This document shows, in pieces, positions 36,524-57,843 of a stretch of 64,000 nucleotides of DNA. Numbering within the stretch: position 1 is the stretch's first letter; each line of letters opens with the position of its first letter. The stretch spans positions 1-64,000 of IMG/VR virus record IMGVR_UViG_3300045988_151684; one strand, written 5' to 3'. The notes under the pieces are model-generated. The model was not told the origin of the DNA, searched no databases, and worked only from the letters and a program-made list of their open reading frames with translations. Position numbers and translations under genes: made by a program. This DNA is from a virus.

Positions 36524-36534
36524 TTTATTCTCCT

Positions 36535-38766: not shown

Positions 38767-40739
38767 CTCACTAATACTAAGGATTGTTTTAATTCTTTTG
38801 GTGATATTGATACATTGTTGCTAACAAGATAATATTCACATCCTGCTAAAATAATTTTATCTCTAAAATCTATAATATGTTTGTATTCAGAAATTCCATT
38901 ATTCACTGATGTTATTAAATCTAAGGTAACAGTTTCTTTAATCCTTTGATTACAGTATTCCGATATTTCCTTAAAATATTTATTATTAAGTGAACTGTCT
39001 TCTATTGAAAATGGTAATGTATCATTTTCCTCACTTGAATAATACGTATTGGAATTACCATAAGTATCATTTAGCTGGTATAAATACCAGCTATGGTGTT
39101 CCCCTACTGATGGAGTAATTATTATGCTATGGGATATATTATTTAAACCTGTTACATTATTAGTATTAGCTATTGCATTTTCAATAACACCACTTATATC
39201 GCTTTTTGATGTTATAGCATGACGATGGCCTAGATCAGTGTGATATACGTTATATGAATCATTTTTTTTACCATTCTTTAATACTGTATGATTTTCATTA
39301 ATCTGTCTAGCATTTGTATTATAATCAAACTTTATAACCTCCTGTGATCCATCCGCATTATTTATAATTTGCATGGCTGGTCTATTATATATATCATAAA
39401 TTATTTCATTATCAGCACTGCCCGTTTCAAAATATAGCAAATTACCATTATCATCGTTATCACCATCTTCAAAATCGAAATCTATATTTACATCATAACC
39501 AACATCTTTGTTTAACAATATTGCCATAGTTTTATAAATCATTATTGGTTCCTGTTGAATTACTGGTCTAGTATGCGGAATGTCAGTAATATCTACTATA
39601 TTTATTTCATGACCTCGTTGTAATGCATATATTTTTTTATTACGTATAAATACATTTATTTGATGCCAGGGTATTTCCTTGCTCCAGCTAAAAAAATTAC
39701 TGATCAAATCAATACATGTAGCACTTTGATTAGCACATCCATTAGATGGTGTAAAATCATCGAACATTATTACCGGTTCCAAACCTAATATATTGGCTAA
39801 ATATTTAAAATGTACACTTGCTTTAGCGGTTGGTTCTCTTTTAGAATCGTCAACACCTCCAGACACACCATAATTTAGTGTTGTATGACCGCCAATATTA
39901 CCACCGCCTGTAACTATATGCGGTTCACTTGGTGAAGTATCTCTATAAATTACAATTTTTCCATTTTTATCAAAATCAGGATAACGAACAAGTGAATGTG
40001 TCAATATTTTCCAAGCCGTCGTTGACGTTATTGATAGTTTCTTGTCTGTTATTGATGTTGTTTTTACCATAAAATCATAATAATAATCCAAAATATTACC
40101 ACTTATTCTATCTTTAGGTAACATTGAACCAAACATCAAATCCATACTTATATTATCATTAATTGTATTTTCTTGTATGCTAATTGCTGCATTTATTAAC
40201 CGCATTCCTTTTGGCTGAACAACTTGACCATTTTGCCACGATATATTTTTTAATGCCTGTGCTAAAGTATCAAATTTTATTTCAATCGAACCATTTTGAA
40301 TTACTTTCGTTGAAAAATTCCACTTTGTCAAATATCCTTGCTTACGAAATGTATCCGATGATAAACTTATATGTTTGTATACATAACGTTTTAAATCAAA
40401 ATCACTAACTATGCTTATATATTGTGCTAAATCTCTTTGAACATCATATGAAATAGTCATTGTCTTATCTATAATTCGTTTTGCAATGCTATTATTTATT
40501 TCAAAATTACTAATATAACGTTTTATATCATATTGAACAGCTATTGCTGTTCCAATAGATAAGTCTCGTTTAGTTGCATAATAAGCCTGCAACGACTTTT
40601 CAACATTACGTTGTATATAATAATTTTCATCTATAGTTATAGCGTTGTCTGCAATTATATACGCATATAACGATATTGATGATATATCCGCTTTTTGTTT
40701 TCTACAATTTGCATAACTAATGAACGACAGATTCGCCAT
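38757..40739 (-). CDS. tail-associated (Tal-like) baseplate protein
   Basis: 660 aa, position after Dit-like. Confidence 0.45.
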   Translation of the reverse strand: MANLSFISYANCRKQKADISSISLYAYIIADNAITIDENYYIQRNVEKSLQAYYATKRDLSIGTAIAVQYDIKRYISNFEINNSIAKRIIDKTMTISYDVQRDLAQYISIVSDFDLKRYVYKHISLSSDTFRKQGYLTKWNFSTKVIQNGSIEIKFDTLAQALKNISWQNGQVVQPKGMRLINAAISIQENTINDNISMDLMFGSMLPKDRISGNILDYYYDFMVKTTSITDKKLSITSTTAWKILTHSLVRYPDFDKNGKIVIYRDTSPSEPHIVTGGGNIGGHTTLNYGVSGGVDDSKREPTAKASVHFKYLANILGLEPVIMFDDFTPSNGCANQSATCIDLISNFFSWSKEIPWHQINVFIRNKKIYALQRGHEINIVDITDIPHTRPVIQQEPIMIYKTMAILLNKDVGYDVNIDFDFEDGDNDDNGNLLYFETGSADNEIIYDIYNRPAMQIINNADGSQEVIKFDYNTNARQINENHTVLKNGKKNDSYNVYHTDLGHRHAITSKSDISGVIENAIANTNNVTGLNNISHSIIITPSVGEHHSWYLYQLNDTYGNSNTYYSSEENDTLPFSIEDSSLNNKYFKEISEYCNQRIKETVTLDLITSVNNGISEYKHIIDFRDKIILAGCEYYLVSNNVSISPKELKQSLVLVRWK

Positions 40740-40740
40740 A

Positions 40741-41565
40741 TTAACTTCCCTCGCTCGTTATAACAATTTTTTCTTTATCTATAGCTGTAAATACAGTTTG
40801 CTTTTCAGTTGTTAATCCAATTTTTTTTGATATTTCATTGGCTTGAACCGTTAAGCCGGTTACATCACCACCACCAGCAACATTAAATATTGCTTGTAAA
40901 CAATCAATATTGTACCCCTTTAGTTCATCAATATTCTCTGGTGCTGCCAACATTATTTTTTTATTAATATTATCTGTTTCATAGCTGCTATCATCTTTTA
41001 AAATCCAGTCAGTAGTTATTGTTGGCTTTATTTTTACAATTTTATCATTAAAGTCAATTTTACTATCTGAAATTATAATCATTTTAAAATCATATCTATA
41101 TTTACTATATGGATCACATATTAATAGTTTTGTAATTGATTCATCAGCTAGATAATTACCATTCAATGATACTACCGGTGAATCATCTCCTGCTTGTTTT
41201 ATGACAAAAACACCATCTGTACCACTTTTTATATGAATAATAATATCAAGATTTTTTGTATTTAAAACAAATGGTTCAGAACTGATTTTATCATCGGTTT
41301 TTATCACCCAATTTAAAGAATTTGCATTACACGATATTATTATTTGATGATTAGCGGACTGAAACGATATTATGTCTGTATCAAAACCACCAGTATAATA
41401 TTCTGCTTTAACTCTCACCCAATATTCTTTTTTATTTTCACTAACCAGGTCCAAAACAGGCGCATTAACCAACTTATATGGCAATGCTAATGAGTTGGTT
41501 CTTTCAAAAACATCTGTATAATCATCAAAAAAATATTTACTATTTATCGTAAATTTTTTAAACAT
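40741..41565 (-). CDS. distal tail protein (Dit-like)
   Basis: size/position downstream of TMP. Confidence 0.4.
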   Translation of the reverse strand: MFKKFTINSKYFFDDYTDVFERTNSLALPYKLVNAPVLDLVSENKKEYWVRVKAEYYTGGFDTDIISFQSANHQIIISCNANSLNWVIKTDDKISSEPFVLNTKNLDIIIHIKSGTDGVFVIKQAGDDSPVVSLNGNYLADESITKLLICDPYSKYRYDFKMIIISDSKIDFNDKIVKIKPTITTDWILKDDSSYETDNINKKIMLAAPENIDELKGYNIDCLQAIFNVAGGGDVTGLTVQANEISKKIGLTTEKQTVFTAIDKEKIVITSEGS

Positions 41566-41582
41566 AAATTATCCTCATTCAC

Positions 41583-41993
41583 TTATACAGCCTTGATTTT
41601 TGTTGTTATTCTAATATTAGTTGAACTATCAATGACTGGATCTTCATCAGCTGTTGATAGTGCTTTAATATATAATATTTTATTGGTTTCATTTATTGAA
41701 TCTCTAATGATTAATGAACTTTCAAACGAACTGTTTTCACTAGCAGATATTACCCATTTATTACTATTACTACCAACAAAAGTTATAGCTGTATTGCCTG
41801 TAGTAATAAACCCTGGTTCACACCGTACTGCTACTTTAACTGTCTTGCTTTCATTATTGGCAGCATCAAGTGTAATTTCTAATGGTGATGTTTCTGTATT
41901 ATCTGTAGATATTGGTATTCCGTCACTTCCGCCCTCTGTTACATCTCCCATGTATAAATTAATATATTTATTAGACATTTTATTCATCCTCAT
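41583..41993 (-). CDS. 136-aa tail protein, tandem paralog A
   Basis: paralogous to 41990..42400 (YINLY..TEG..DG...RCE....A.IT.V...W....SL....IN.TN.I). Confidence 0.45.
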   Translation of the reverse strand: MRMNKMSNKYINLYMGDVTEGGSDGIPISTDNTETSPLEITLDAANNESKTVKVAVRCEPGFITTGNTAITFVGSNSNKWVISASENSSFESSLIIRDSINETNKILYIKALSTADEDPVIDSSTNIRITTKIKAV

Positions 41994-42400
41994 TCATTTA
42001 CTAAAATCATTGCCTTTAACTGCAAAACAACTGACCTATCATTTTTAGGCAATGCTGCATCTGATTTCACTTTAACAAAAAAAATTGTATTCGTAGTATT
42101 TATTTCATCTTCAAATATCAAGCTCTTTTTAAATTCATCTGTTTCATTTTTAGCAAACAACCAATTAGTTTTATCATCATTGACAGCAGTTATAACTGCT
42201 CCTGGTGCTGCCTTCCACCTGTTTTCACATCTTAATCCCAGTTTTATATTTTTGCTTTCAAATTCACCTACATCCAAAACAACTTCCACTGGATTACTTT
42301 GTTCACCATTAAGACTAACTAATACTCCATCTAATGCGCCTTCTGTTGGATTGTTTTTATATAAGTTTATATATTGATTAGCTGCCATTATATTCTCCAA
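41990..42400 (-). CDS. 136-aa tail protein, tandem paralog B
   Basis: as above. Confidence 0.45.
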   Translation of the reverse strand: MENIMAANQYINLYKNNPTEGALDGVLVSLNGEQSNPVEVVLDVGEFESKNIKLGLRCENRWKAAPGAVITAVNDDKTNWLFAKNETDEFKKSLIFEDEINTTNTIFFVKVKSDAALPKNDRSVVLQLKAMILVNE

Positions 42401-42744
42401 ATTTCCAATGCTGCTTTTACTGCCTGCTTAGCATAATATTCTACATATTGCCAGTTTTTTATCACTATACGGCAATTTGATATTTTTTTCCCACTTTCAT
42501 CAGTTACAGTAACTAACGTCCTTGACTCCCATAATTGATAAATTTTGCTAAAATCTTCACTTCTAAAAGTCGTTGAAACTGTAATTTTATCCCCTGCTGT
42601 ATTGTGACCAAAATCTTGTACTACCGTTCCATCAATCACATCAATTCTAGTTTGCCGATCATCTGGTGTTATTTGCCATGATTCAGCTTTTCCAAGTGAT
42701 GATATATCATTTATTTGTAAAACTGCCAAAATACTCACCTTCAT
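42388..42744 (-). CDS. hypothetical tail protein
   Basis: ORF after TMP. Confidence 0.4.
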   Translation of the reverse strand: MKVSILAVLQINDISSLGKAESWQITPDDRQTRIDVIDGTVVQDFGHNTAGDKITVSTTFRSEDFSKIYQLWESRTLVTVTDESGKKISNCRIVIKNWQYVEYYAKQAVKAALEIWRI

Positions 42745-42745
42745 T

Positions 42746-45622
42746 CTAATAACTTAAACCTACATCAGCATCACCTAATGCTTTAGCTACTATTTCCGCT
42801 CCAGCTTCCGCTACTTTATTTTCAGCATCTTCCAAACCGCTTACTAGTATATGCATCTGAATTTTTTTAGTAGCTTCTGGATAATTATTAATTTGTCTTG
42901 CGCTAGGATTATAATTTAGTTTACTAGAATTATTTTCTAATGTGCCAACTATTTTAGTCAGGCTATCAGTAACCCTAGTAATATCATCACTGCTAAACAT
43001 TGCATTAGCCTGTTGCTGCGTCCATAAAGGATAATCCTGCCAATTTGCCGTCCCGCTTGGCTGACTATAATTATAATAATCTGTCTGCGTTCCTTTAATC
43101 ACTGATACAGCCGCTTCCCCAGTTATCATACCTGCCATTTTAAATGCATCAACTGCCTCAGTATTAATACCGGCCAATACATCCCCTGGCAATTGGTAAC
43201 TGCTTTGCGTTCCGCCCACTACTTCAACCATCGCTGCTTTTACCCCTCTATAGGTCGCATCTGACAAAATAGGAACTAAATTATTATTAGCTATCTGCAT
43301 TGCTTGCTGAAATTGTGCTATTTCAGCAGGTGAGGTAAATGACATATTAGCAATTCCTTTGTCTTTTCGCATTTGTTCAGCAATCTGTTGTGCAGCTCCA
43401 TTAATATCCGCTCCTCCAGCCATTGCATTTCTAAATATTTCTAAATATTTTTTCTGTGATGTAAACATTTCTTGTGCTGATTGCTGTTGTAATTGTTTTT
43501 TAGATTCTTCTGCCCACTTAGTTGCTTTTACTTCATCTAATCCTTTTTGAATCCAAGCTTGTTTTTCCCGATTAATTTCTGATAATCTTTTTTGATAATT
43601 ATTTCCCCAAATAGAATCTATCTGACCAGCAACTTGCGCATCCCAATCAGAACGTATTTTAGATTTTCTTGCCTGCGCCCATTTGTTGGCTTCATCTGAA
43701 CTTGCACCACGCTTAATATAATCTTTAGCTTGCAAATCTACATCATCAAGCTGATTTTGTAAGTCTGTCTTAAAAGCTTGTGCCATTGGAGCAGTTACAT
43801 TCCTAAACTTATCCTCTGCTATACGTGTTGATTTAGCATTGATAAAATCATTTATTAAATCATCAGGAACACCATTTGCTTTAGCCTTTTCAGCTTCCAC
43901 ATACATAGCATGTGTGGCACTGTCAATATCATTATGGGTTAGCGTATAAATGGTTTCTGCCAGCTGTCCGGCAGCAGTTGCCCGCCATTTCATGGCGTCA
44001 GCAGCCTTTAATTGAGCGCTGGCGTTTTTATTTGCCGTTTCTGCATTCTTTTTATCTGCATTTTCCGCTTTCATGCTTGAATTAACAACGCGGTTCCAAG
44101 CTTCTTCAATAAATGGCGTATTTTTATTTATTATATTGGCATATTTCGTAAATCCTTCCGTGCTAGGTGCATCTATGCCCTTATGTAAGGCTTTTTGAAA
44201 AACATTCCCTATGCTGCTATAGTCTTTGCCTTTTTGTATATCATCATAAACGCCTTGTTGCATCCTATAGGCATCATAATCTTTTTTTATTAGCGAGCCT
44301 CCCAAATAGGCACTAATTGGATTAGACATCATAGCTATGGTATTCAATTTGCCTTTATTGTTCCAGGAATATTCTAATTCTTTGAGCACTTGACCAGACT
44401 TTAAGCCTATAACCCCAATTACTTTAGCAACTGCCTCTATAGCTGTTGCCCAGCCTTCAATAGAGTCTTTTACATCATCCTTGTTATCCTTAATAATGCT
44501 AACAAATGTTTTCATCCCGTCGGTTACTTCTGGCATTATTGCTTGCGCTATTGGTATCATTGCTGCACCAAAAGCTGTTTTAAGCTGTCCAGCTTCCGCA
44601 TTCATGGTTCTCCATTCAATTGATAATTTATGTGCTTCAACTGGATCAAGCAAACCGGTAGTCTTAACATTATTCGCTATCTGCATATTAGTTTTATAAT
44701 CTTCTAACAACGGAATCAGCTCTGCACCACGACGCCCTAATATTTGCGCTTGAAATTCTTCCAGCTTCCCGGCTTCGGCTGCTCTTTGATATCCTGCGGC
44801 TAATTCATCTAGCTGACGATTTAACGGCAATAAATTACCTGCTGAATCCTTTAGATTTATACCAAATGACAGTAAAGCTAAACTTGTGCTATTAAGTCCT
44901 TTATTTGAACTCAACACTTGTTTATCCAGATTGGAAAAAAAAGGAATAACTGCTTGTATATTAACTCCACTGATAGAAAACACTCTATTCAAACTGGCAG
45001 CTTCTCCAGTAGTAAGATGAAGTCTATTGGATAATTTATACAGGTTTTCTCCAGCCTGCATTGCATCTTGCGTTATATTGAATAATCCTGCTCCAGTAGT
45101 AGCTATCGCCATAAAAGCCGCTAATTTACCACTTAAAAGTCCAAAACTTCCTGTTAATTTATCCAAGCCTGAACTAGCACCATTTGCCATTTTTGATATT
45201 CCTGATTGGTTAACTTTATTTTGTTCAACTTGAACCATTTTTAGCGCATTTTTTAACTTTTCTAATTGTGTTGCCTGTTGAAGATAATTATTTTGAGCCC
45301 TATATGTTACTTTAGATTTTCCACCGAATTGTTCATTGGCTGCTTTATACGCCTGTGCTAAAATGTCAACCTTTCGTTTTTGAATTTCAATTTGCTGTGT
45401 TAATGACTGCTCTTTTATTTTTAGCTTGTCAACATCATTCCCAGCTTCCCCAAGCTTTGCCGCATCAAAGCTAGCTTTTAGCTTGATAGTTTTTGCTTCC
45501 GCATTTAGTTTTTGAATCTCAGCATTTATTGAATTTTTCGCAGCATTAAAACCGCCCGCTAAATCATCAATATTAAGTCCCAATGATAAATATAATTTTG
45601 ATACTTCCGTTCCTGCTGCCAT
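42746..45622 (-). CDS. tail tape measure protein
   Basis: 958 aa, coiled coils, homolog of N-terminal part of 10674..14690. Confidence 0.85.
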   Translation of the reverse strand: MAAGTEVSKLYLSLGLNIDDLAGGFNAAKNSINAEIQKLNAEAKTIKLKASFDAAKLGEAGNDVDKLKIKEQSLTQQIEIQKRKVDILAQAYKAANEQFGGKSKVTYRAQNNYLQQATQLEKLKNALKMVQVEQNKVNQSGISKMANGASSGLDKLTGSFGLLSGKLAAFMAIATTGAGLFNITQDAMQAGENLYKLSNRLHLTTGEAASLNRVFSISGVNIQAVIPFFSNLDKQVLSSNKGLNSTSLALLSFGINLKDSAGNLLPLNRQLDELAAGYQRAAEAGKLEEFQAQILGRRGAELIPLLEDYKTNMQIANNVKTTGLLDPVEAHKLSIEWRTMNAEAGQLKTAFGAAMIPIAQAIMPEVTDGMKTFVSIIKDNKDDVKDSIEGWATAIEAVAKVIGVIGLKSGQVLKELEYSWNNKGKLNTIAMMSNPISAYLGGSLIKKDYDAYRMQQGVYDDIQKGKDYSSIGNVFQKALHKGIDAPSTEGFTKYANIINKNTPFIEEAWNRVVNSSMKAENADKKNAETANKNASAQLKAADAMKWRATAAGQLAETIYTLTHNDIDSATHAMYVEAEKAKANGVPDDLINDFINAKSTRIAEDKFRNVTAPMAQAFKTDLQNQLDDVDLQAKDYIKRGASSDEANKWAQARKSKIRSDWDAQVAGQIDSIWGNNYQKRLSEINREKQAWIQKGLDEVKATKWAEESKKQLQQQSAQEMFTSQKKYLEIFRNAMAGGADINGAAQQIAEQMRKDKGIANMSFTSPAEIAQFQQAMQIANNNLVPILSDATYRGVKAAMVEVVGGTQSSYQLPGDVLAGINTEAVDAFKMAGMITGEAAVSVIKGTQTDYYNYSQPSGTANWQDYPLWTQQQANAMFSSDDITRVTDSLTKIVGTLENNSSKLNYNPSARQINNYPEATKKIQMHILVSGLEDAENKVAEAGAEIVAKALGDADVGLSY

Positions 45623-45642
45623 TATTTTCTCCTTTATATAGG

Positions 45643-45815
45643 CAAAACATCATCAATAAATGCCTGTGTTGGTTCATTTTCTACTTTATCCATCACATAT
45701 ATCATTTCAAACAAATCTTCTAAATCAGTATCATCTATTTGTTTGATAGTCCAATGATATGTCTTAGCTAACTGACAATATAATGAAAGTGCTGTTTCAT
45801 GGGCGGTCAGCTTTA
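45643..45815 (-). CDS. tail chaperone -1 frameshift extension (GT-like)
   Basis: -1 frame open ~70 codons from chaperone stop to just before TMP start. Confidence 0.35.
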
Positions 45816-46118
45816 TTGTTCTGCTGCCGCCGTTTCTACGTTTGGGAGGTTATTTATTTTTTCATAAAAAGTCCGGTATACATATTTGCTTGCATCAATA
45901 TAAGCATTTGCCACATCTTCAAATGACATTTTTTCAATTTCCTTATCTGAAACGTCGTATATCAGCAATATTCCCTGTATTGCTATATTGGCAGCGTCTT
46001 TTATTGAATTTTCACTCTCATATTTTTCATTTAATTTCAAGATTTCACGCCAATCACCAACAGTTATTTTTTTTGCACTATATTCAGTTCCATCTATCAC
46101 AATTTTTGGGATTTCCAT
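45813..46118 (-). CDS. tail assembly chaperone
   Basis: synteny with 10000..10353. Confidence 0.55.
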   Translation of the reverse strand: MEIPKIVIDGTEYSAKKITVGDWREILKLNEKYESENSIKDAANIAIQGILLIYDVSDKEIEKMSFEDVANAYIDASKYVYRTFYEKINNLPNVETAAAEQ

Positions 46119-46175
46119 AAACGTTATCCTTTCTATGTAGAAAAAACAGACGGTAATTAACCGCCTGCTATATTA

Positions 46176-46760
46176 TCAGGCTGTTGCAAACCAATCCGTT
46201 TTAGTCTGCTCAATATAGCCTTCTGCTTCTTCATCTGCCTGCATAACCGCTACATGATCACTGTTTCTATACACAGCTGTAGCTGTCATTTGTGGCGTAT
46301 TGTACGAAATATTTTCTTCTTTGGTCTTAGCATCTTCATCCGGCTCAGCAAATTTAACTTTTACAAATTTTATAAATCTTGCTTTGCCATTAGACTTATT
46401 GGCTTGAAATGCTACTAAAAAATATGGTGCTGCATCAGTAGACTTTATCGTCATTATGCCAGTTTTATCATCGTAATCATGACCGCATAATAATGCTCTA
46501 TATTCTAGTGGTATATTAGCCATATCAACAGTTAACTGATATTTTGATACTACATTGGACGATTCTACAGCTGCATCATCTGCGTATAGCGATTCTTCAT
46601 TTGTTTGCGGTTTAATTTGTACTTCCCGCAATTGCGGAATATGAATCATTTCAGCATACGTAGCTATTCCCTCTGCTGGATCCGTAAGCATTTCCGCAAT
46701 ATGAAATTGCGAAATACCTATGAACGGAGAATTGGTAATGCCTGATTTTGTTCCTGCCAT
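46176..46760 (-). CDS. major tail protein
   Basis: homolog of 9431..9976. Confidence 0.7.
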   Translation of the reverse strand: MAGTKSGITNSPFIGISQFHIAEMLTDPAEGIATYAEMIHIPQLREVQIKPQTNEESLYADDAAVESSNVVSKYQLTVDMANIPLEYRALLCGHDYDDKTGIMTIKSTDAAPYFLVAFQANKSNGKARFIKFVKVKFAEPDEDAKTKEENISYNTPQMTATAVYRNSDHVAVMQADEEAEGYIEQTKTDWFATA

Positions 46761-47140
46761 TATGCTTCAACTCCAATCTTATAATCAGCCACGCATAATG
46801 CATGGCCATCATCTTCCTTTAACTCATTTACTTGTAAGCGTGAAAATCCTAACTTGACCATTATAGTATTAATTATCTCGTAAAGCTGCCAATATCCCCC
46901 AGTATTTCCTGTTACAACATGTATTCTTAATGTTACATAATGCCCTAATTCATAATCATCACCACATATTCCTGGTATATCTGATACAACAGAATAAACA
47001 ATATATGGTATTCGGGCTTCATTGCCTGGCGGAGCTTGTATATGATATATACCTTGACTTCCTTTAGCCAAATTATCCGTAAGCTTTTGGTCTTTACTTA
47101 ATGCACTATAAACTTTTGTCAATAATTCTGCTGTTTTCAA
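46760..47140 (-). CDS. tail completion / neck protein
   Basis: homolog of 9024..9434. Confidence 0.45.
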   Translation of the reverse strand: MKTAELLTKVYSALSKDQKLTDNLAKGSQGIYHIQAPPGNEARIPYIVYSVVSDIPGICGDDYELGHYVTLRIHVVTGNTGGYWQLYEIINTIMVKLGFSRLQVNELKEDDGHALCVADYKIGVEA

Positions 47141-47572
47141 TTATTTGCTTCCTCGTCGTTTTGTAGCATTTTGAACTGCTTGAATAATTGAATTTCTTAC
47201 AGCCTGTTGATGTGCATCAAACGCTGGGTATAAAAACGGTTTATTTATTTTACTAGAAAATTCAACAAATAATCCATACGGCAGTCCTGATGTGCTACTT
47301 TTGGCATTAGCTTCAATATGATATACCGAACCTTCTTTTTTACCAACTGCTTTAATTGAAGCTTTTAAAGCTCCCGCCTCAACATCAGCTCTTGGTAAGC
47401 CGTTATATACTGGAACTCTATTTTTAGCATCCTCAGTAATTGTATTGACGCCCTGTTTTAAAGCTGCTTTAGCAGCTTTAACAACATTTACGCCAATTTC
47501 TTCTAATGCTTTTACTGCCTGAGCAACACCACGTACATCACCACGAGTAAAATCATTATAGCGTTTGGCCAT
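47141..47572 (-). CDS. HK97 gp10-like protein
   Basis: homolog of 8585..9037. Confidence 0.5.
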   Translation of the reverse strand: MAKRYNDFTRGDVRGVAQAVKALEEIGVNVVKAAKAALKQGVNTITEDAKNRVPVYNGLPRADVEAGALKASIKAVGKKEGSVYHIEANAKSSTSGLPYGLFVEFSSKINKPFLYPAFDAHQQAVRNSIIQAVQNATKRRGSK

Positions 47573-47987
47573 CTTCCACTAACTCCCTACAATCAATGAC
47601 TAGCCATATATGACGATTCTCGGCATCATATGGCGGTGATACTATTTGTAATTTTTTTGACCGCCAAAATATTATATCGTCCGTTTTAATATTTTTACGA
47701 TAACGGATTATTATCCTGTAATATATTTCAGCTGATTTACTTGCCACATCATGACCATCCTTTGCAGCATATGGCAAAATTTTAGCCCAACAAGTGTAAC
47801 GCGTTTTCTCTGTACGACTAACGATGTCGCCAATTTCATCACGGCTATAGTCATAATAAAGAACCTTTATTCTCTCTCGTAAATCATCAAAAGAAGTTCC
47901 CTTTATGATACTTCCTTTACTAATCACAATTAATCCTCCGCAAAATTCTGTAACTGCGAAATCATCGAACGTATAAAATATGGCCAT
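47556..47987 (-). CDS. head-tail adaptor
   Basis: homolog of 8265..8585. Confidence 0.5.
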   Translation of the reverse strand: MAIFYTFDDFAVTEFCGGLIVISKGSIIKGTSFDDLRERIKVLYYDYSRDEIGDIVSRTEKTRYTCWAKILPYAAKDGHDVASKSAEIYYRIIIRYRKNIKTDDIIFWRSKKLQIVSPPYDAENRHIWLVIDCRELVEDGQTL

Positions 47988-48226
47988 TCAGTGCGACTAT
48001 CATTATGTGAATCTCTATTAGAATACATTTCCGCTATTAACGCATATAACAACATATTAGCTTCAGGCTCAAATTTATTGTTTTTCATAAGTTGTTCAAA
48101 ATTATCTATTGAATTTTTGCAATAACTTTCAGCAGATACTATACATTGTTGCAAAAACGCATCATCATGAGTAATATCATCATCTATGCGCAAATAATTT
48201 TTTATTCCACTTAAATCAATTGCCAT
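47930..48226 (-). CDS. head-tail connector
   Basis: homolog of 7866..8258. Confidence 0.55.
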   Translation of the reverse strand: MAIDLSGIKNYLRIDDDITHDDAFLQQCIVSAESYCKNSIDNFEQLMKNNKFEPEANMLLYALIAEMYSNRDSHNDSRTEWPYFIRSMISQLQNFAED

Positions 48227-48243
48227 AATTTCAGTTAACCTTC

Positions 48244-49371
48244 TTATGCAGTCGTAACAGCGTATGCCTTCATTGCATTCACATCATCAGCTACTACATC
48301 AAAACGTTCAACACAACGTAAGGCTGTCGCATATTTATCAAAAAGAAAATCTTGTGATACCGCTATTTCTATTCCCTGACGTTCAAAAAATGCTGCATAA
48401 TCTGCCAACGAACCAACATAGAATGGTATTTTTTTGGCGGTAGTAGCTAATGTATTGTTCGGTAATACAACAATTTCCTTTCCTCTAAAACGATATGTAT
48501 CTGGTGCAGCAACATCCGGCAATAATAAAGGGCGATTCTGACCATCTTCCAATTCTGATAACCACTGAAAACCATCCTGATTAGTGATAATTTTTGCATT
48601 AGCATAATAAGCTGGATCAATATCTACATTTAACGCTTTTACCAAATTTTTATAACCTGTTAGCGCAGTTGATGATAATTTAGCCAACAGCTTTAATATT
48701 TCAGCATTTTCCGTATTTACTGCTTTTCTAGCAAACCGTTTACCAATAATATCTACAATACTTACATCTGCATCCGCTAACAGCTGATTTGATACTGGAA
48801 TGATATCACCGTAATCTTTGATTTCATACTTCAATTGACCAAAATCAAAATCAGACTGTGTTATACTATTAAGTTCTTCAAAAGCAGTAAGCAAACCAGA
48901 TTCATCACCAAGTGTTGGCATTTTCCCTGATAAACTATTTGCATTTTGAACATGTGTAAGCTGCTTTATTGCAGTATATGCTTTTCTGTATTCTCGTATA
49001 GTTGCCAATTGCTCCTCAGGCACCAAATAGCCGCCCTTATTCGGTGTCCCAGCAACCTGTCCCGGCGAACCAATTGTATTAGCTATTTCTTTTTCATCGT
49101 CATTAAGCTTATGCCCTAATACCAGCTTATTAAATACTCGATTTTTTAATTTAACATTATTCACATGCCTTCCATTCACAGGAGCAGCATTTTTGGTAAA
49201 ATTGGTCATTGCTGCTGCTTCCATAGCTTTTGCTGTATGGTATTTGTTTACTGTCTCTGTTAATTCCGTGCTTAGTTTTGCTGCATCAGAATACTTTTAA
49301 TTCTGTTGCAGTTGTTCTATTTTTCCAGTCAATTCATCTACAACTTTTTTCAATTCATCAGATTTTTTCAT
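48244..49371 (-). pseudogene. major capsid protein gene interrupted by in-frame TAA (49297..49299) after codon 25
   Basis: reading from ATG 49371: MKKSDELKKVVDELTGKIEQLQQN-stop-KYSDAAKLSTELTETVNKYHTAKAMEAAAMTNF... aligns colinearly with intact prophage 1 MCP, which has DEQ at that point. Confidence 0.55.
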
Positions 49372-50111
49372 TTCAACATTGCTCCTTTCGCAAGTGCCAA
49401 AGCTATTTCAGCTTTGTATTTATCATTATTTTTATCTAACATTGTTTTTTTCAATGCCATTTTTTGTTGTTGCACTATTTCATAAGGGATTTTGGTTTTA
49501 TTCATATAATTCAAGCCTTTGCCTGCACATGCAGCTACTTGTATTGGTTCAGTTTTATTTATATTGAATATTTTAGACGCTTCGTCACCAGTTAACCATG
49601 TTTCTGACTCTACCATAGAATGTATTTTTTCAGCTGTTATTCCATCTAAAGCGCAATTTATATAAATTTTTTCAAGTCCGTCTTGAATTGTGTCAAGGAT
49701 TTCCGCCATTTTTTTCATATCATTAGAATTACCACTACTATATGCGGATGGTTTATGTATCATTAAATATGTGTTGCTTGGCATTTCTCGCTCATCTGCT
49801 GAAAAAAATATTTGTGTTGCTATACTGCAACACCAGCCTTCAACAATTGCCTTGGTATGACCATCATGATTATGTATCATATTCGCAATTGCTACTCCTG
49901 CCGGTACACTGCCACCGTCAGAGTTAATATATATCGTTAAATCTTTTCCTTGTAAATCATCCAGTTGTTTACGAATTTTTTCAGGCCATTGATATCCTGT
50001 GGTATTGCTATACCATTCTTCTATGCAACCACCATTATCATCATCTATTATATTTCCACTAATAACTATTTCCGCACTATCATTAGTTTGATTTTGGATT
50101 CTTATCCCCAT
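49368..50111 (-). CDS. ClpP-like prohead protease
   Basis: IYINSDGGSVPAGVAIANMI...IATQIFF.ADER..PSN.YLMIHKPS. Confidence 0.85.
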   Translation of the reverse strand: MGIRIQNQTNDSAEIVISGNIIDDDNGGCIEEWYSNTTGYQWPEKIRKQLDDLQGKDLTIYINSDGGSVPAGVAIANMIHNHDGHTKAIVEGWCCSIATQIFFSADEREMPSNTYLMIHKPSAYSSGNSNDMKKMAEILDTIQDGLEKIYINCALDGITAEKIHSMVESETWLTGDEASKIFNINKTEPIQVAACAGKGLNYMNKTKIPYEIVQQQKMALKKTMLDKNNDKYKAEIALALAKGAMLK

Positions 50112-51339
50112 TGCTTTTCACCTCGTTGTTTTCATACGCTTTTCCTATATCTTCTAATTTCACATATGAACCATTAACCATATGCACATCACCGCCTATA
50201 CATGGCGGTATATCTAAACGGTCACGAGCTTCATTGACGCTATACACTGATGATTGAACCATTTTTTGCAAAACATCTGCCTGTTGCTGCGGATCACCGC
50301 GTAATATTGTCCAAACATTGAATTTAAATCCTAATCCAGCTAATTGTTCTTTTTTAGTTAATAATTTTCTATTCATTTCCTGCTCATAAATTGTGACATT
50401 ATATAGCAAGGTATTAACATAAAATTGCAAATTTTGCATAGCACTATTGTTATAACTTGATTTTGTATAATCATTTAGATGATCTGGATTTACCCCAAAA
50501 GCAGCTGCTATCTGTAATGCATTGTATTTGCGCAATTCATAAAACTGTGAATCGGTCAATTTTAAATCAATTGGCTGAATATCAAAACCTACGGGTAAGG
50601 TAATCATGCGCCTAGCATCATCCCGGGATTGTTCATCAATCCTTTTTAAAAGTTTTCTTTGTTCAATACTATTTAAATCACCAACATATTTAACCACGGC
50701 ATTAGCCGTTAGCCCATGACTATATAAATTGGTTAAAAATTCTTGGGCAGCCTTATTGCCTGCCATATTTGCGGCCAATATCTCTCGTACTGATTTTCCA
50801 ACATAACAACCATTTTCAGTAATCCACGCTTTGACGTGTAACATATTTTCAGGATCTATCCAAAAATCTTTACCGGAACCACTATCAAAATAACGATAAT
50901 AATACTGCCGTTTTGTATAATCAGCTGTATTATTAACCCAAACTTGAACCTTTTGTGGATCAAGTAAATGCAATCCCTTTAAAATAGAATTTTCCCGCTC
51001 AATATACGCATAACCATTGCCATAATGGTTGCGACAATATTCCAATCTAGAAAAAAATTGTATTGGTGTCATTATTTTATTTGGTGCTATGCTAAAAATT
51101 GAAACAGTTTCATGATGGCTTATTCTATTCTTTTCCTTATCAATTAGATAAACTGGCATTTTTCCCAAATTTTCAGCTAACGTTTTTAAACATGTAAAAT
51201 AAGTTATTTCAGCTAAATCCGGACCACCAATTTTATTTTTTGATGCAAAAAATAATTCATTTATATCATTCAAAGAAATATTAGCTGTCATATTATTTAT
51301 TTTTCTTTTAAGCAACGTCAATATACTAATCTTCCTCAC
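50083..51339 (-). CDS. portal protein
   Basis: homolog of 4750..6006. Confidence 0.9.
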   Translation of the reverse strand: MRKISILTLLKRKINNMTANISLNDINELFFASKNKIGGPDLAEITYFTCLKTLAENLGKMPVYLIDKEKNRISHHETVSIFSIAPNKIMTPIQFFSRLEYCRNHYGNGYAYIERENSILKGLHLLDPQKVQVWVNNTADYTKRQYYYRYFDSGSGKDFWIDPENMLHVKAWITENGCYVGKSVREILAANMAGNKAAQEFLTNLYSHGLTANAVVKYVGDLNSIEQRKLLKRIDEQSRDDARRMITLPVGFDIQPIDLKLTDSQFYELRKYNALQIAAAFGVNPDHLNDYTKSSYNNSAMQNLQFYVNTLLYNVTIYEQEMNRKLLTKKEQLAGLGFKFNVWTILRGDPQQQADVLQKMVQSSVYSVNEARDRLDIPPCIGGDVHMVNGSYVKLEDIGKAYENNEVKSNGDKNPKSN

Positions 51340-53074
51340 CTTCTTTCTCAGTGATTTCCAGCCACTCAGCTAAAGCAGCATGACCATCAACTGTATCACT
51401 TTTTTGTGAAAACCATACTTTCCAAGCATCTATAATGGCATCTACACAATCAATACGATTTGTTTGTGTCATCTTATCAATTTTTATCTCACCAAATGAA
51501 TTAGGTGCTGAAATAATTGCATTTACAGCGCTCCATGTCATTAATGCATTTTGTTTATCATACATTACTTGCCCAGATTTAACAGATAACTGAAAATCTT
51601 TTGTAACATCATTTAATGACCGTGCTGACTGCTTAATCTCAGTTAAATCACAATCCAAAATTTGTTCCAAATCTTCTAAAAAGGCACTGGCATTATGCGC
51701 ATCATAACCACATCCTATTATTTTTAAATGATATTTGTTTATCATATTATTTAATTCTGAAATGATATGCTTATAATCTGTTTTTATGCCATACATGCCA
51801 GATGTAAGCGTCAATAAACCTGCATTTTTCCACATTCCATACGGTGCATCATCTGACTGTATATGTTCAGCCAAACGTAACTCTGGCATATAACTATGTG
51901 AGTATAAATATATCCTTGACTGCTCCAGTGGGAAAAGCAACGCTATACTTGTTAAATCACCGCCACTAGATAAATCTATACCTAAAAAACATTCCTTGCC
52001 TTCCATGTCAGAAATTTTTTTATTAGCGCCGCATCGCTTCCAGCACTCTAAATCCAGTAACGCACCGCCTGTATATGTTACCCAGCGGTTTAACGATTTG
52101 GTTTGAAAATTAACTAATTCATTTCCTTGTTTTTCCTTTGCATCTATTGCCTTTTCAGCCATTCGTGCAACCATTTGCTTATTGATAGTATCATCATCAT
52201 TCCATAGATACAGCGGATTTGCTTTAGCCCAATTTTCTGGCAGCCAAATATCATCATCTTGATCCATTTCAGCAATATATATAAATAGCGATTCTTTTTT
52301 TACATTTCCTGTCAACACTTTTTTGCAATATTGATATTGCTCATAGCATGGACCATTAAGATTAAATCCAGCCGTTGTAATCGCTAGCGTCAAAGCATTA
52401 TCAACCAAAATTTGACCATCATTTACTAACTTGTACATCTGATTGGTTGGATGCGCATGATATTCATCAACAATTGCTAGTATTGTTCTAAAACCATCTG
52501 CGCTTTTAGTGTCTCTGCCAATAGCTTTTATAACTGTTCCAGTTATACGTGATGTAATAACATGATCGTATTTACGGATTGTATATAATTCAGCTAGGTC
52601 TGAATCTGATTCAATAAATTTTTGCACATCTTCCCAAACAATATTAGCCTGGTCCTGTTTAGTAGCTGTACAAAATATCCGCCCATAATTATATCCTCCA
52701 AATGTAGCAAAATCATTGCATAATTCACCAGCTATAAATGATTTACCATTTTGTCGTCCCATTTGGATATAACCCTCACGAAAGCGACGCAATTTACTAC
52801 GTTTTTTTCGCCAGCCAAATAAGCTTCCAATTATAAAATTTTGAAAACCTCTTGTTTTTAACGGTTTCGGACTGCCTTCACCTATTGTCAATGTATTTGC
52901 TATAGCTATATGACGCTCTGCTTGTTTAACATCAAAAATATATTCAAAATTTTTATTTTCCATGTCATTAAGATGACGTTTACAAGCTAAATACTCAGCA
53001 CGACCACATATTTTTTTACCACTTATTATTTTTTTTGCGTATTCAGTAGTTAAGTCTTTCATCACACATAGCAA
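51326..53074 (-). CDS. terL: terminase large subunit
   Basis: 582 aa, high identity to 3011..4753. Confidence 0.9.
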   Translation of the reverse strand: MLCVMKDLTTEYAKKIISGKKICGRAEYLACKRHLNDMENKNFEYIFDVKQAERHIAIANTLTIGEGSPKPLKTRGFQNFIIGSLFGWRKKRSKLRRFREGYIQMGRQNGKSFIAGELCNDFATFGGYNYGRIFCTATKQDQANIVWEDVQKFIESDSDLAELYTIRKYDHVITSRITGTVIKAIGRDTKSADGFRTILAIVDEYHAHPTNQMYKLVNDGQILVDNALTLAITTAGFNLNGPCYEQYQYCKKVLTGNVKKESLFIYIAEMDQDDDIWLPENWAKANPLYLWNDDDTINKQMVARMAEKAIDAKEKQGNELVNFQTKSLNRWVTYTGGALLDLECWKRCGANKKISDMEGKECFLGIDLSSGGDLTSIALLFPLEQSRIYLYSHSYMPELRLAEHIQSDDAPYGMWKNAGLLTLTSGMYGIKTDYKHIISELNNMINKYHLKIIGCGYDAHNASAFLEDLEQILDCDLTEIKQSARSLNDVTKDFQLSVKSGQVMYDKQNALMTWSAVNAIISAPNSFGEIKIDKMTQTNRIDCVDAIIDAWKVWFSQKSDTVDGHAALAEWLEITEKEGEED

Positions 53075-53078
53075 CTAC

Positions 53079-53543
53079 CTATAGGTATTTCAAATACTTA
53101 TTTACCGTTTTTTCTTCTTTAGTTGGAACAATTAATTTCAATCGATCCGTTGTAGCTAATCCTAGTTTCGTACTGCATTTCATTATTTGAGTCGCTGAAT
53201 CATTAGCAATTCGACAATAAGCCGATGGTATTTCTCCAACTTTGCCTTCTGTAGTCAAACCTTTTTCATTAAGTGATTTACTCGCAACGATATACCTGCT
53301 GTAATTATCTGCATAAATTGCCAATATTGATAAATCCAGGTTATCAAGCAAATTAACTTTAGCTGCTTCACGAACTACTCTATTATATTCATAAGCAGCC
53401 TCATCATTAAGCCACTTGGGAGCGCCTGTTTCTAATTGATCACGTCCGACTTTTAATTTGGATTCTTGCAATTCACGATTCATACGGTCTTTTTTACTTA
53501 TTTTACCGGTTGATATACCAATTACTTTTCTTGGTCTTGCCAC
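53079..53543 (-). CDS. terS: terminase small subunit (P27 family)
   Basis: GTG start MARPRKVIG after RBS AGGAGG + 8 nt; homolog of 2548..3027. Confidence 0.7.
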   Translation of the reverse strand: MARPRKVIGISTGKISKKDRMNRELQESKLKVGRDQLETGAPKWLNDEAAYEYNRVVREAAKVNLLDNLDLSILAIYADNYSRYIVASKSLNEKGLTTEGKVGEIPSAYCRIANDSATQIMKCSTKLGLATTDRLKLIVPTKEEKTVNKYLKYL

Positions 53544-53605
53544 ATGATTCACCTCCTACTAATGTATGTTCACTCAATGCGTATTTGCTTGCAGTTATAT
53601 CTATT

Positions 53606-53654
53606 GGCATTTTTGGCATTTTTCCAAAATAAAAGGGGGAGCGCGCTCCAACTA
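53606..53654 (-). promoter_or_regulatory. direct repeat GGCATTTTT x2 (contains AAAAATGCCAAAAA) and palindrome GGGAGCGCGCTCCC followed by T-run upstream of terS
   Basis: seen in sequence; motif shared with prophage 1 position 2514..2526. Confidence 0.4.
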
Positions 53655-53661
53655 GTAAATA

Positions 53662-54081
53662 CTAAAACTTTTTTCGCCTTCCCCTGGCAGTAACAATATC
53701 TATAAGCTTAGCTTGCAATAATTTCTTTTCGTTTCCTTCTTTTTTATAAATATCATGGACCTTTTTATGATTCTTGCGTGATAAAAAAATAAGATTATTT
53801 ATATCAAGTGCTTTGTCCGGTTTTTCTTCCAGTGTATATATGTGATGTACTATATTTCCAGCCTGATATTGTTTTGATTCTGCCATAACCAATTCATCAG
53901 CACCGTGTGCTATTATCTTTATTTTTTCAACTATCTTTCGCCATGCTAAACTATGATAAAATTTATTTTTTTTCTGATCACGTTTCTCATTGTTATACTG
54001 ACGTTGCCGTAAGCTAACGCATGGGCAAGTTACACCTTGTGGTAGTTTACGGCCACATGCGCTACATATGGTCATAAGCAC
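53662..54081 (-). CDS. HNH endonuclease
   Basis: CxxC...CxC, HHI motif; homolog of 2016..2426. Confidence 0.75.
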   Translation of the reverse strand: MLMTICSACGRKLPQGVTCPCVSLRQRQYNNEKRDQKKNKFYHSLAWRKIVEKIKIIAHGADELVMAESKQYQAGNIVHHIYTLEEKPDKALDINNLIFLSRKNHKKVHDIYKKEGNEKKLLQAKLIDIVTARGRRKKF

Positions 54082-54182
54082 ATTATATTCACCTTCCCTC
54101 TATTCATTTTAGATAATAAGCCTAAATAACTATCTCGGCATTAAATATAGTTATCCTTATTGAAAATAATAGCATTGATTGG

Positions 54183-54593
54183 CTAGTTTAAGGTGCTGCC
54201 TTTTAATCGCAAATGCATTTCAATTATTCGATTTATTATTTGCCGCCACCACTCTTTTAATGTTCTTTCAGCAAATAAACAACGAGCATTAATAAAACGT
54301 TTATTTATTTCCTCTGCATATCGTCTTTGAACATATGCTGTCCAAGCGTGCCGCCCACGGCCATTTGTTTTCTTGCCTTCTGCTTCTTGACGTACCATAA
54401 TAAATATTCTTTTTCGTTCACCGTATGTTCGCAAGGTTAAATCTATAGCCTGCAACCACTCATTATCTTTAATATTTTTATCCACTTGGGTTTGGTAAAT
54501 ATCATAATTTAGAATATACTTAGCTGCCATTTTACGATCTTCCCGCATTTGTTTAACAATTTCTTGCGCATTGTCATACTGATATTTTTTCAT
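54183..54593 (-). CDS. ArpU/RinA-like late transcriptional activator
   Basis: start MKKYQYD with RBS AAAGGGGA; homolog of 1350..1856. Confidence 0.45.
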   Translation of the reverse strand: MKKYQYDNAQEIVKQMREDRKMAAKYILNYDIYQTQVDKNIKDNEWLQAIDLTLRTYGERKRIFIMVRQEAEGKKTNGRGRHAWTAYVQRRYAEEINKRFINARCLFAERTLKEWWRQIINRIIEMHLRLKGSTLN

Positions 54594-54657
54594 AATTTCC
54601 CCTTTTATGTAATACGTGTTTATAAAACTCCTTGGCAATAGTCAGTTTTTGAAATCT

Positions 54658-54686
54658 CCTTGACAATATAGGATAAAACATATATT
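54658..54686 (+). promoter_or_regulatory. promoter TTGACA-17-TATTAT with direct repeats (TATAGGATA x2; TCCTTG.CAATA x2)
   Basis: seen upstream of HigB-like gene. Confidence 0.45.
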
Positions 54687-54725
54687 ATATCTATAGGATA
54701 TATCACATATTATCAAGGAGTAACA

Positions 54726-55082
54726 ATGTCAGATTTTGAAGTCAGTTTCTATACTTGCCACGATGGCGGCAAGCCTGCTAAAGATTTTATCCTTGGTCTG
54801 GATAAGAAGATGCGTACCAAAATGTTACGCACCATCGAAATTCTTGAAGATAAGGGCAATCTGCTCCGTGAGTCATATTCTAAGCATTTAGACGATGGTA
54901 TCTTTGAACTTCGTGCCAAAGTCGGCAGCGATATTTCACGGGTGCTATATTTCTTCGTGGTAAACCACGAAATTATACTCTCCCACGGCTTCATCAAGAA
55001 AACTCAAAAGACACCACCTGCCGAAATCGAACGTGCAAAAAAGAACCGTAAGGACTATTTGGAAAGGATGACTGACAAATGA
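54726..55082 (+). CDS. RelE/HigB-like (Gp49/DUF891-type) toxin
   Basis: ...ELRAKVGSDISRVLYFFVVNHEIILSHGFIKKTQKTPPAEIERAKK pattern; followed by HTH gene with ATGA overlap. Confidence 0.65.
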   Translation: MSDFEVSFYTCHDGGKPAKDFILGLDKKMRTKMLRTIEILEDKGNLLRESYSKHLDDGIFELRAKVGSDISRVLYFFVVNHEIILSHGFIKKTQKTPPAEIERAKKNRKDYLERMTDK

Positions 55083-55357
55083 GCGAATTTAGGGATTTTC
55101 TCAATAAACAACTGCAAGATCCAGAAATTAAGGCCGAATATGATGCTTTAGAACCGGAATTTGCCATTATTCGCGCCATGATTGATGCACGGGAACGGCA
55201 GGGCATAACTCAAAAGGAATTAGCCGCCCGCACCGGCATTGCGCAGGCCGATATAAGCAAACTGGAAAACGGCAACGCCAATCCATCCATCAAGACTCTT
55301 AAACGCCTGGCATCCGGCCTTGGTTGTCGCCTAAAAATTGAATTTGCAGCCCTATGA
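55079..55357 (+). CDS. XRE-family HTH antitoxin (HigA-like)
   Basis: GITQKELAARTGIAQADISKLENG HTH; coupled to upstream toxin. Confidence 0.65.
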   Translation: MSEFRDFLNKQLQDPEIKAEYDALEPEFAIIRAMIDARERQGITQKELAARTGIAQADISKLENGNANPSIKTLKRLASGLGCRLKIEFAAL

Positions 55358-55384
55358 GGAAAGGCCTTTGCAGAATTTGATATG

Positions 55385-55440
55385 ATACCTCTAAAGTAGA
55401 TAAGGTAAATAACTAAAATCTACTTTGGAGGTATTTTTAT
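55385..55440 (+). terminator. long hairpin (16-bp stem, 1 mismatch) followed by TTTTTAT; coincides with GC-composition junction
   Basis: ATACCTCTAAAGTAGA ... TCTACTTTGGAGGTAT. Confidence 0.5.
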
Positions 55441-55588
55441 GGGTAGAAAAACCAAATGTACGTTTGAAGAAAAAGTTTCTGCTGATAAAAATTTGCACTA
55501 GAAAAGGCCACCCGCATTTTTGCGAGTGGCCATCAGGTACACTTCTATGCCCTGATAATATCATGTTCGGTATTCGGTTGTCAAATTT

Positions 55589-55786
55589 TTATTTTGTTGT
55601 CATCATACGCTCGGCGCGAGCGCGGTCTTTTTTGACGATTTCAGCGTATTTCTTGATAAGTTCCCATTCGTCATCATGCGCCCGTACCTGCCGTTGTTTG
55701 CGCTGATTGCTTTCGGCCTTGGTTGTTCCCTTTGGCCTGCCAGCCCCGGCGCGTTTGCCGCCCCAACCGTTGTTAGTATCTGCCAT
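55589..55786 (-). CDS. conserved GWGGKR-motif small phage protein
   Basis: paralog of 1020..1211. Confidence 0.5.
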   Translation of the reverse strand: MADTNNGWGGKRAGAGRPKGTTKAESNQRKQRQVRAHDDEWELIKKYAEIVKKDRARAERMMTTK

Positions 55787-55905
55787 GCCCCATCACCTTC
55801 TTCAGAACAAAAAGCGATACCGCCAGAGCTGCTAGTGACACTGCCAAAGTTACACTTGTCAATATTTCCATTTTCGTGATATGAAAACTATGCTATAATT
55901 ATCTT

Positions 55906-55960
55906 AACCCTCCAATGGAGGGGGAGGCTTTCGCCTCCCATCGCTTTTACTTGCGATGTT
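55906..55960 (+). ncRNA. candidate antisense RNA with three stable hairpins (CCCTCC-aatg-GAGGG; GGAGGC-tttc-GCCTCC; CATCGC..GCGATG)
   Basis: extended -10 TGcTATAAT at 55892..55899 directs transcription antisense to the small peptide gene. Confidence 0.25.
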
Positions 55961-56057
55961 CTTCTTTATAAGCCTTGTACATCAGTAATGCCGTTACCAG
56001 TTGGATTACTGCTGTTACAAGGCTTATTGTGTTTGCTATAATTTGCATTGTTTCCAT
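55947..56057 (-). CDS. 36-aa Fst/Ldr-like hydrophobic peptide (candidate type I toxin) METMQIIANTISLVTAVIQLVTALLMYKAYKEEHRK
   Basis: strong RBS AAGGAGGTGAGGAT; single TM then charged tail; convergent antisense promoter and hairpins overlap its 3' end. Confidence 0.4.
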   Translation of the reverse strand: METMQIIANTISLVTAVIQLVTALLMYKAYKEEHRK

Positions 56058-56209
56058 ATCCTCACCTCCTTTCTATGATTTTATTATATATCATCTTGAT
56101 TATTTTGTCAATCATAAAATCAAAAAATTTATGGGAACATCATTTTTAGCTCCCGCTAGTACCTATAACCCCCGGGGGCTATATTTGTGCCCAAGTTGGG
56201 CACAATCTC

Positions 56210-56515
56210 TCAGACATCCCAGCCCATTGCCTTCCTGTTGAGCCTATAGACTTCGTCTGCGCTCATCCCCTCACGCTCTGCAACGATTGCAAGCAATTCA
56301 TCACGTTGAATGTTACCTGAATGAGCACCAATATGGCAGCACGTACACAGCTGAACCAAGTTGTATGATACATCGCCACCGCCGCTGCCAACCGTGAAAA
56401 TGTGATGTGGTTCAATTCCTGCGTAACGCCCGCAACGTTCGCAGAAGTTCTTGCGTGCAGCTTTGATGGCTTTGCGGTCCTTTATTCTCTTGTGTTTACT
56501 GAGTCCCAACAACAT
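56210..56515 (-). CDS. small HNH endonuclease
   Basis: start MLLGLSK with RBS AAAGGAGG; CERCG...HHI...CxxCH motifs. Confidence 0.6.
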   Translation of the reverse strand: MLLGLSKHKRIKDRKAIKAARKNFCERCGRYAGIEPHHIFTVGSGGGDVSYNLVQLCTCCHIGAHSGNIQRDELLAIVAEREGMSADEVYRLNRKAMGWDV

Positions 56516-56521
56516 ATTTCC

Positions 56522-56558
56522 TCCTTTGCATACAAAAAGACCGTTGGGGTACTCCCGC
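56522..56558. terminator. bidirectional terminator
   Basis: AGACCGTTG...CAACGGTCT 9-bp stem with T-runs. Confidence 0.6.
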
Positions 56559-56672
56559 AACGGTCTGCTTTCTTTTGGGCACTAAAATAGCCGCCCGTTA
56601 TACGCGGACGGCTTTGCTCTGCAATAGTTAGTGCTTTACACGCTCTATTATACCTTCCTCTCATTCTGACTG

Positions 56673-57149
56673 TCAACCGTCGCACAATCTTCGATAAAGT
56701 TCTTTTGTCGTGGGTTTGGATAAGTCCGTCTTGTGCCGGGGCTTTCCGCTTCTTGAGCCGCCGCCTTTCGTAGGCCGTCCGCCAATTATAGCCGCATATA
56801 TGTCTTGCGAATGATTGAACACCGGGAAATCCTCGGTGGTCTCCATAACTGCGCGGATATCGTTGCGGGTTTCCGCGTGTGTTTTTTTGCCGTACCAGAC
56901 TTCAGTGGCACATTGCGGACATTTGCAATAGGTATCGTCTATTGCTATCATCGGGACACGGCATCGCTGGCAATACCATACACCGTGTTTCTTGATCGCA
57001 AGTTCCGCGCCTTGCTTATTTTGTTTGTAGCTTGCTTCGCCGCTTGGCCATGCTTCGGCTCCGCACTCCGGGCATTTATCAAACATTCCCGCTTGTGGCT
57101 CCATTAGCACCCTGCATTCCTGACAAAACCACGTCTTGTCGTTTTCCAT
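56673..57149 (-). CDS. hypothetical double zinc-ribbon protein
   Basis: two CxxC-x10-20-CxxC units (CQECR...CPEC; CQRCR...CPQC). Confidence 0.45.
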   Translation of the reverse strand: MENDKTWFCQECRVLMEPQAGMFDKCPECGAEAWPSGEASYKQNKQGAELAIKKHGVWYCQRCRVPMIAIDDTYCKCPQCATEVWYGKKTHAETRNDIRAVMETTEDFPVFNHSQDIYAAIIGGRPTKGGGSRSGKPRHKTDLSKPTTKELYRRLCDG

Positions 57150-57215
57150 TAGTTCGAGCCTCCTCCGCGGTTCTTCTTTTTCCTCTGCTTGTGTTTCTTT
57201 CGATTCTTTGGCTGC

Positions 57216-57386
57216 TTATTTATTATAACGGTGTGCTGGCTGGCTATTTTCACCAGCCTTAGATATTCCCTTAGCTTCATGACTTCGTCCCTCCCAGCCA
57301 GGTATTTTATCCGGCTTATCAGATTTTGTTCCGCTCACCCAAATAATGGTCATGATGAAGATAGCCACTGCTAATATATCAAGCAT
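57216..57386 (-). CDS. 56-aa small TM protein (paralog B)
   Basis: RBS GGAGGG; hydrophobic N-terminus. Confidence 0.35.
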   Translation of the reverse strand: MLDILAVAIFIMTIIWVSGTKSDKPDKIPGWEGRSHEAKGISKAGENSQPAHRYNK

Positions 57387-57528: not shown

Positions 57529-57533
57529 GTTTT

Positions 57534-57842: not shown

Positions 57843-57843
57843 G

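Follow-up and report, generated by a model that had tools for sequence, protein, structure and literature searches.

An in-frame stop codon in the major capsid gene of a gut Selenomonadales prophage, very probably a recent nonsense mutation

The 64,000-nucleotide stretch of DNA analysed here (the window) holds two prophages lying tail-to-tail about 2-3 kb apart: prophage 1 (1-28600, plus strand) and prophage 2 (~30700-64000, minus strand), the second of which runs from ~30.7 kb to beyond 64 kb of the window. The early region of prophage 2 carries a replication initiator gene and ParA/ParB-like genes, and the late genes follow in the order HNH, TerS, TerL, portal, protease, capsid, connectors, tail proteins, tape measure and distal tail proteins, with a GH25 endolysin gene after the distal tail genes. 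All on the minus strand, the genes for the terminase large subunit (51326..53074; PF03354 and PF20441), the portal protein (50083..51339; PF04860, E = 7e-73) and a ClpP-type prohead protease (49368..50111; PF00574, E = 2.8e-23) are directly seen to be intact, and the portal and protease genes sit immediately upstream of the capsid gene. The TGA stop of the protease gene overlaps the capsid ATG (ATGA), and the authentic capsid start is preceded by the Shine-Dalgarno sequence AAGGAG (49382..49387, minus strand), with an anti-Shine-Dalgarno duplex of -7.9 kcal/mol that places it in the top 1.4% of gene positions. Scans of 48000-50300 found 7 promoter-like sites, against 11.2 expected from shuffles, and 3 terminator-like sites, against 1.1; in this region only one terminator-like site lies on the gene strand, within the protease gene, and none bears on the capsid stop described below. 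A blastn search of the INPHARED phage collection at a distant setting returned no match to 48000-50200.

The major capsid gene of prophage 2 (48244..49371, minus strand) was identified from its translation, its PF05065 domain and 99% identity to an intact 375-aa protein (P0001). Translation of the minus strand from ATG 49371 to the TAA stop at 48246..48244 yields 376 codons with exactly one internal stop; the intact form of the gene has 375 sense codons. The internal stop is a TAA at codon 25 (49297..49299, minus strand), where all close relatives have GAA (Glu), and the altered base is window position 49299, which is T on the coding strand and G in relatives. Upstream of the TAA the frame reads MKKSDELKKVVDELTGKIEQLQQN, and downstream it continues as KYSDAAKLSTELTETVNKYHTAKAMEAAAMTNF... 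for another 350 codons in the same frame. The 24 pre-stop codons (49300..49371, minus strand) correspond, by translation and AF2 modelling, to helix 1 of the scaffold (delta) domain, and this 24-codon piece is all that the authentic capsid start can now yield. While orthologues encode an intact 375-aa precursor, the prophage 2 gene has no uninterrupted frame that would give the full precursor. Its longest stop-free ORF begins at Met50 (48244..49224, minus strand; 326 aa, P0121) and carries the IMG annotation 'HK97 family phage major capsid protein'; gene calls on ENA contigs begin at Met55 and give 321 aa (P0132; ATG 49209, minus strand). Chance is not at issue: the frame runs on for the 350 post-stop codons and matches intact orthologues residue for residue. 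We rejected frameshifting, because the reading frame is identical before and after the stop, and also a separate, split-off scaffold gene, because the piece before the stop is no longer than 24 codons and the gene is a single fused one in relatives.

The reconstructed 375-residue protein matches Pfam PF05065 over residues 113-370 (E = 2.7e-35), and PDB chains of major capsid proteins align over residues 109-370 (E = 1e-20), identifying the gene product as an HK97-type major capsid protein. The capsid domain thus begins at about residue 109-113, and the codon-25 stop therefore falls within the N-terminal scaffold (delta) domain. Like HK97 gp5, the protein has about 105 N-terminal residues, with a predicted helical hairpin, fused to the capsid domain, and the genes follow the order TerS-TerL-portal-ClpP-like protease-capsid-connector with no separate scaffold gene. 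It differs from the HK97 system in that the prophage 2 protease is ClpP-type, whereas that of HK97 is of the gp4 type, and in that the capsid gene is interrupted at codon 25 and, as encoded, cannot be a functional member of the family.

As a comparator we used the major capsid gene of prophage 1 (6711..7850, plus strand), which is uninterrupted and encodes 379 aa. Its product, which begins MKKSDELKKVVDELKAKAEQLQTDEQYDD..., shares 61% identity with the prophage 2 capsid over 376 aa, and the first 14 residues of the two proteins are identical. We place the start at ATG 6711 rather than 6513 on the basis of a GGAGG Shine-Dalgarno sequence upstream and matching N-termini in homologues; the mechanically called ORF (6513-7850, 445 aa) overlaps the prophage 1 protease gene (5939-6724). 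An earlier note on this DNA, written without database searches, had reported the in-frame TAA in the prophage 2 capsid gene and its colinearity with the N-terminus of the prophage 1 capsid. Both observations hold: the frame is colinear with intact capsids on both sides of the stop, and the match to prophage 1 runs from the true start at 6711. Beyond the capsid, the head modules of the two prophages are homologous, with amino-acid identities of 73% for TerL, 63% for the portal and 48% for the protease. Both prophages are carried by MAG HGM14095, where prophage 1 lies on one contig (L009) at 99.8% identity, and the host species is therefore a human-gut Selenomonadales bacterium.

Every close relative of the prophage 2 gene has GAA at codon 25, as read in five assemblies with 99.1-99.6% DNA identity. 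The protein P0001 (375 aa, ...QQNEKYSD...), found by protein search, is 99% identical to the 350 post-stop residues, and the 1.7-kb gut-metagenome contig that encodes it (L001) is 99.1% identical to the window without gaps; where 241 bases spanning the start codon were aligned, the sole difference between the two is the G/T at codon 25. GAA is likewise present in two contigs with 99.38% identity over 12.6 kb (L002 and L003), in the GTDB species-representative MAG, Selenomonadales bacterium HGM14095 (L012; 99.3% over 7.1 kb), and in a Logan assembly (L024; 99.6% over 17.5 kb). At the protein level, each of the 12 full-length sequences read in the 90%-identity cluster has Glu25; these represent 63 contigs, and truncated capsid forms represent three, which puts the mutation in about 3 of 66 contigs, an estimate based on the membership of protein clusters and on contig look-ups. 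Across 47 more distant viral-contig relatives in IMG/VR the gene is free of in-frame stops throughout, with E or G at position 25, and nearly all capsid homologues among the matches listed are 374-388 aa long. Exact-pattern scans around codon 25, with N at the variable base, gave no match in IMG/VR or JGI metagenome contigs, and contig look-up by encoded protein gave none for the 326-aa ORF or a 424-aa ParB-like protein. The mutation, its polarity with respect to intact orthologues and its restriction to a single lineage can be read directly from these alignments. The presence of GAA in close relatives and the confinement of the stop to one lineage show that the lesion is a derived, lineage-specific G>T transversion rather than a conserved feature.

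A one-base difference from orthologues that are otherwise 99% identical could also arise if the true base were G and the capsid gene intact, with the T introduced by sequencing or assembly; this would be a fourth option, implied by the earlier note's advice to re-sequence the locus. We consider such an error very unlikely. Window 30741..59209 (28.5 kb) is matched at 100% identity by the ENA contig ERZ27229810:k119_174146, which has the TAA, and a second ENA contig (430,859 bp) also encodes a truncated capsid product. By protein, the 326-aa form occurs on an IMG contig of 103,993 bp and the 321-aa form on ENA contigs of 322,526 and 430,859 bp. At least two further assemblies, which differ in assembler or settings and are identical to the window over 28.5 kb, thus share the T, and the lesion is a substitution rather than a homopolymer-length error. 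The recurrence of the TAA in separately built assemblies makes a random assembly error very improbable, with reproducibility established at the level of assemblies; the TAA-bearing assemblies are 100% identical and represent one strain, and their samples could in principle be related.

These data strongly favour a recent, lineage-specific nonsense mutation, in which codon 25 of the prophage 2 capsid gene, within the delta domain, went from GAA (Glu) to TAA by a G>T change. Ribosomes loading at the strong authentic site would terminate after 24 residues, and little or no assembly-competent capsid protein would be made, leaving prophage 2 unable to build its own heads. Prophage 2 would then be a newly defective prophage: an essential virion gene, whole in its orthologues, is disabled, and the other late genes are apparently intact. 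We infer from the sequence that both capsid protein and particle production would be lost, although low-level readthrough, reinitiation or help from prophage 1 would be conceivable.

The rest of the late module is in good order. Over 12.6 kb, the window differs from the intact-capsid relative L002 by 77 substitutions and one 1-bp indel, and in the late module 42 of the differences are synonymous and 23 non-synonymous, the nonsense change included. This excess of synonymous changes indicates that the late module was under purifying selection until recently. The 1-bp indel, seen relative to both L002 and L003 at window ~54607, is intergenic, lying just upstream of a 136-aa gene (54592..54183), and shortens no gene. 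Gene calls of TAA and GAA strains are alike apart from the capsid, and no extra stops, frameshifts or deletions were found in the 28 kb compared, an absence of further erosion that places the capsid inactivation in the recent past. The capsid stop appears to be the only disabling difference, and the label 'defective' would rest on this one codon. The suggestion in the earlier note that a nonsense mutation makes prophage 2 defective therefore stands, as the nearest orthologues differ at this codon only in having GAA for TAA and the stop occurs in one lineage only, but its description of the element as possibly cryptic, or decayed, was overstated, since the late module is otherwise intact.

Prophage 2 is also a compositional mosaic. 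Its late module (window 34000-54000) has 29-36% GC and its own early region (54000-64000) 40-47%, and prophage 1 (window 1-28000) is mostly 41-54% GC; the sharp GC mosaic suggests that the late module came from a phage whose host had a lower GC content. At window 54726-55357, a divergent, plus-strand pair of genes within the otherwise minus-strand prophage encodes, according to the annotation of the identical contigs, a Gp49-like protein (PF05973) and an HTH protein (PF01381 and related). The pair has the look of a cassette, either a toxin-antitoxin system of HigB/HigA type or a regulator, that was inserted where the early and late modules meet. Among the relatives, the intact-capsid assembly L024 (Logan SRR11236262) has one gap relative to the window in an alignment in which a 347-aa DUF285 distal tail gene is split into ORFs of 47 aa and 299 aa (L024:15936-16980, equivalent to window 34587..35630). 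This split, a candidate lesion distinct from the capsid stop and in another strain, hints that independent inactivating hits accumulate in the prophage family, or it could be an assembly error.

We give very little credence to the idea that a capsid-null prophage 2 still spreads, whether through prophage 1 heads or through an assembly-competent, delta-truncated product from Met50 or Met55. In the second of these routes, translation would restart at Met50 (ATG 49224) or at Met55 (ATG 49209) to give a capsid with a shortened delta domain that still assembles; the earlier note had proposed it in the form of reinitiation at Met 49224. The 326- or 321-aa ORF that is left has been annotated by gene callers, and a weak GGAAG lies 8 bases upstream of Met55. 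The internal sites are nonetheless poor ones: anti-Shine-Dalgarno energies are -0.1 kcal/mol at Met50 and -3.3 at Met55, compared with the -7.9 of the authentic start, and the Met55 value is equalled or bettered at 29% of gene positions. The first in-frame start codon lies 73 nt past the stop, and the Met50 and Met55 columns are both variable among relatives (alignment A2), leaving neither a credible ribosome-binding site before an internal start nor a conserved internal methionine.

The product of such a restart would also lack residues 1-49 or 1-54, comprising MKKSDELKK, helix 3-23 and most of helix 27-61. In the family alignment, residues 1-9 (the MKKSDELKK N-terminus) are invariant or nearly so, and AF2 predicts helices 3-23 and 27-61 as a helical hairpin with pLDDT 81-88, in a model that is poor overall (mean pLDDT 54, pTM 0.36) and of which only the N-terminal ~55 residues were used. 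In the corresponding region of HK97, residues 2-66 form coiled-coil towers that hold the portal (PMC10275583); a 2014 study by Oh et al., cited in that paper, describes the delta domain in its title as essential for assembly. With no Shine-Dalgarno sequence, an unconserved Met50 and the loss of the N-terminus and most of the hairpin, reinitiation at Met 49224 finds no support, and we regard an assembling restart product as extremely improbable.

The other route would have the co-resident prophage 1 supply capsid protein in trans, so that prophage 2 is still propagated. Homologous head modules do lie in one window, and both prophages occur in the species-representative MAG, but with capsids that are 61% identical and proteases that are 48% identical, the prophage 1 protein is not expected to assemble with the portal and protease of prophage 2. 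The scenario is speculative and would need simultaneous induction, and the mutation is rare (~3/66 contigs), with nothing that points to selection for the TAA. Supply in trans therefore seems scarcely credible; if it were true, the use of prophage 1 heads would make prophage 2 a new satellite-like dependant.

Equally hard to sustain is the proposal that the TAA is read through or suppressed, by a suppressor tRNA or a leaky context, to give full-length capsid. Both release factors recognise UAA, which leaks less than the other stops, and background readthrough could not provide the hundreds of subunits that go into a capsid. TAA is moreover the commonest genuine stop of prophage 2 and ends 16 of its 26 genes, the capsid gene among them, so that an efficient ochre suppressor would be harmful; the 64-kb window contains no tRNA gene, and on stop-codon usage we rejected reassignment of TAA. 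In-frame stops with apparent readthrough have been reported to be widespread in prokaryotes, a point in favour of the idea, but the termination codon that the same paper names as 'leaky' is TGA (PMC7918605). The stop in prophage 2 is absent from every relative (5 close relatives, 12 cluster proteins and 47 viral-contig relatives), and there is therefore no conserved recoding signal. Readthrough, as the earlier note had offered it, is thus left with no leaky or reassigned codon, no cognate suppressor tRNA in the window and no conservation of the stop.

We therefore return to a recent nonsense mutation, E25*, as the reading that best fits the locus. Unless the host supplies a suppressor, a nonsense codon early in a phage's major head gene should prevent heads from being assembled. 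Prophage 2 has this kind of lesion in common with laboratory amber and ochre head-gene mutants, which are conditional-lethal; unlike theirs, its lesion is natural, occurs in a gut bacterium and comes with no evidence of a suppressor host. It also resembles defective or cryptic prophages that arose by point mutation in having a single disabling mutation in an essential virion gene, present in some strains only, with intact alleles in the same species. Classical cryptic prophages, though, are heavily eroded, whereas prophage 2 is at the earliest stage. Among prokaryotic genes, the mobilome/prophage category has the highest frequency of in-frame stops, and many of its interrupted genes are pseudogenes (PMC7918605); the same paper discusses prophage pseudogenisation, citing Bobay, Touchon and Rocha 2014. 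The event described here is ordinary and the type of lesion already known: a natural ochre mutation in a head module of the standard HK97-like kind, with no new mechanism and no recoding.

For annotation, the locus should be entered as a capsid pseudogene (E25*), and the label 'major capsid protein' for its ORF of 321 or 326 aa should be dropped; prophage 2 of the TAA strain, which is probably defective despite its complete look, should not score as intact in prophage predictors. Beyond annotation the significance is small. The TAA/GAA pairing may be of use in population studies of prophage inactivation rates, or as a natural control for induction in gut Selenomonadales, and it shows in clean natural form how prophage decay begins, with a single nonsense hit in an otherwise intact element and with intact alleles co-circulating in the same gut species.
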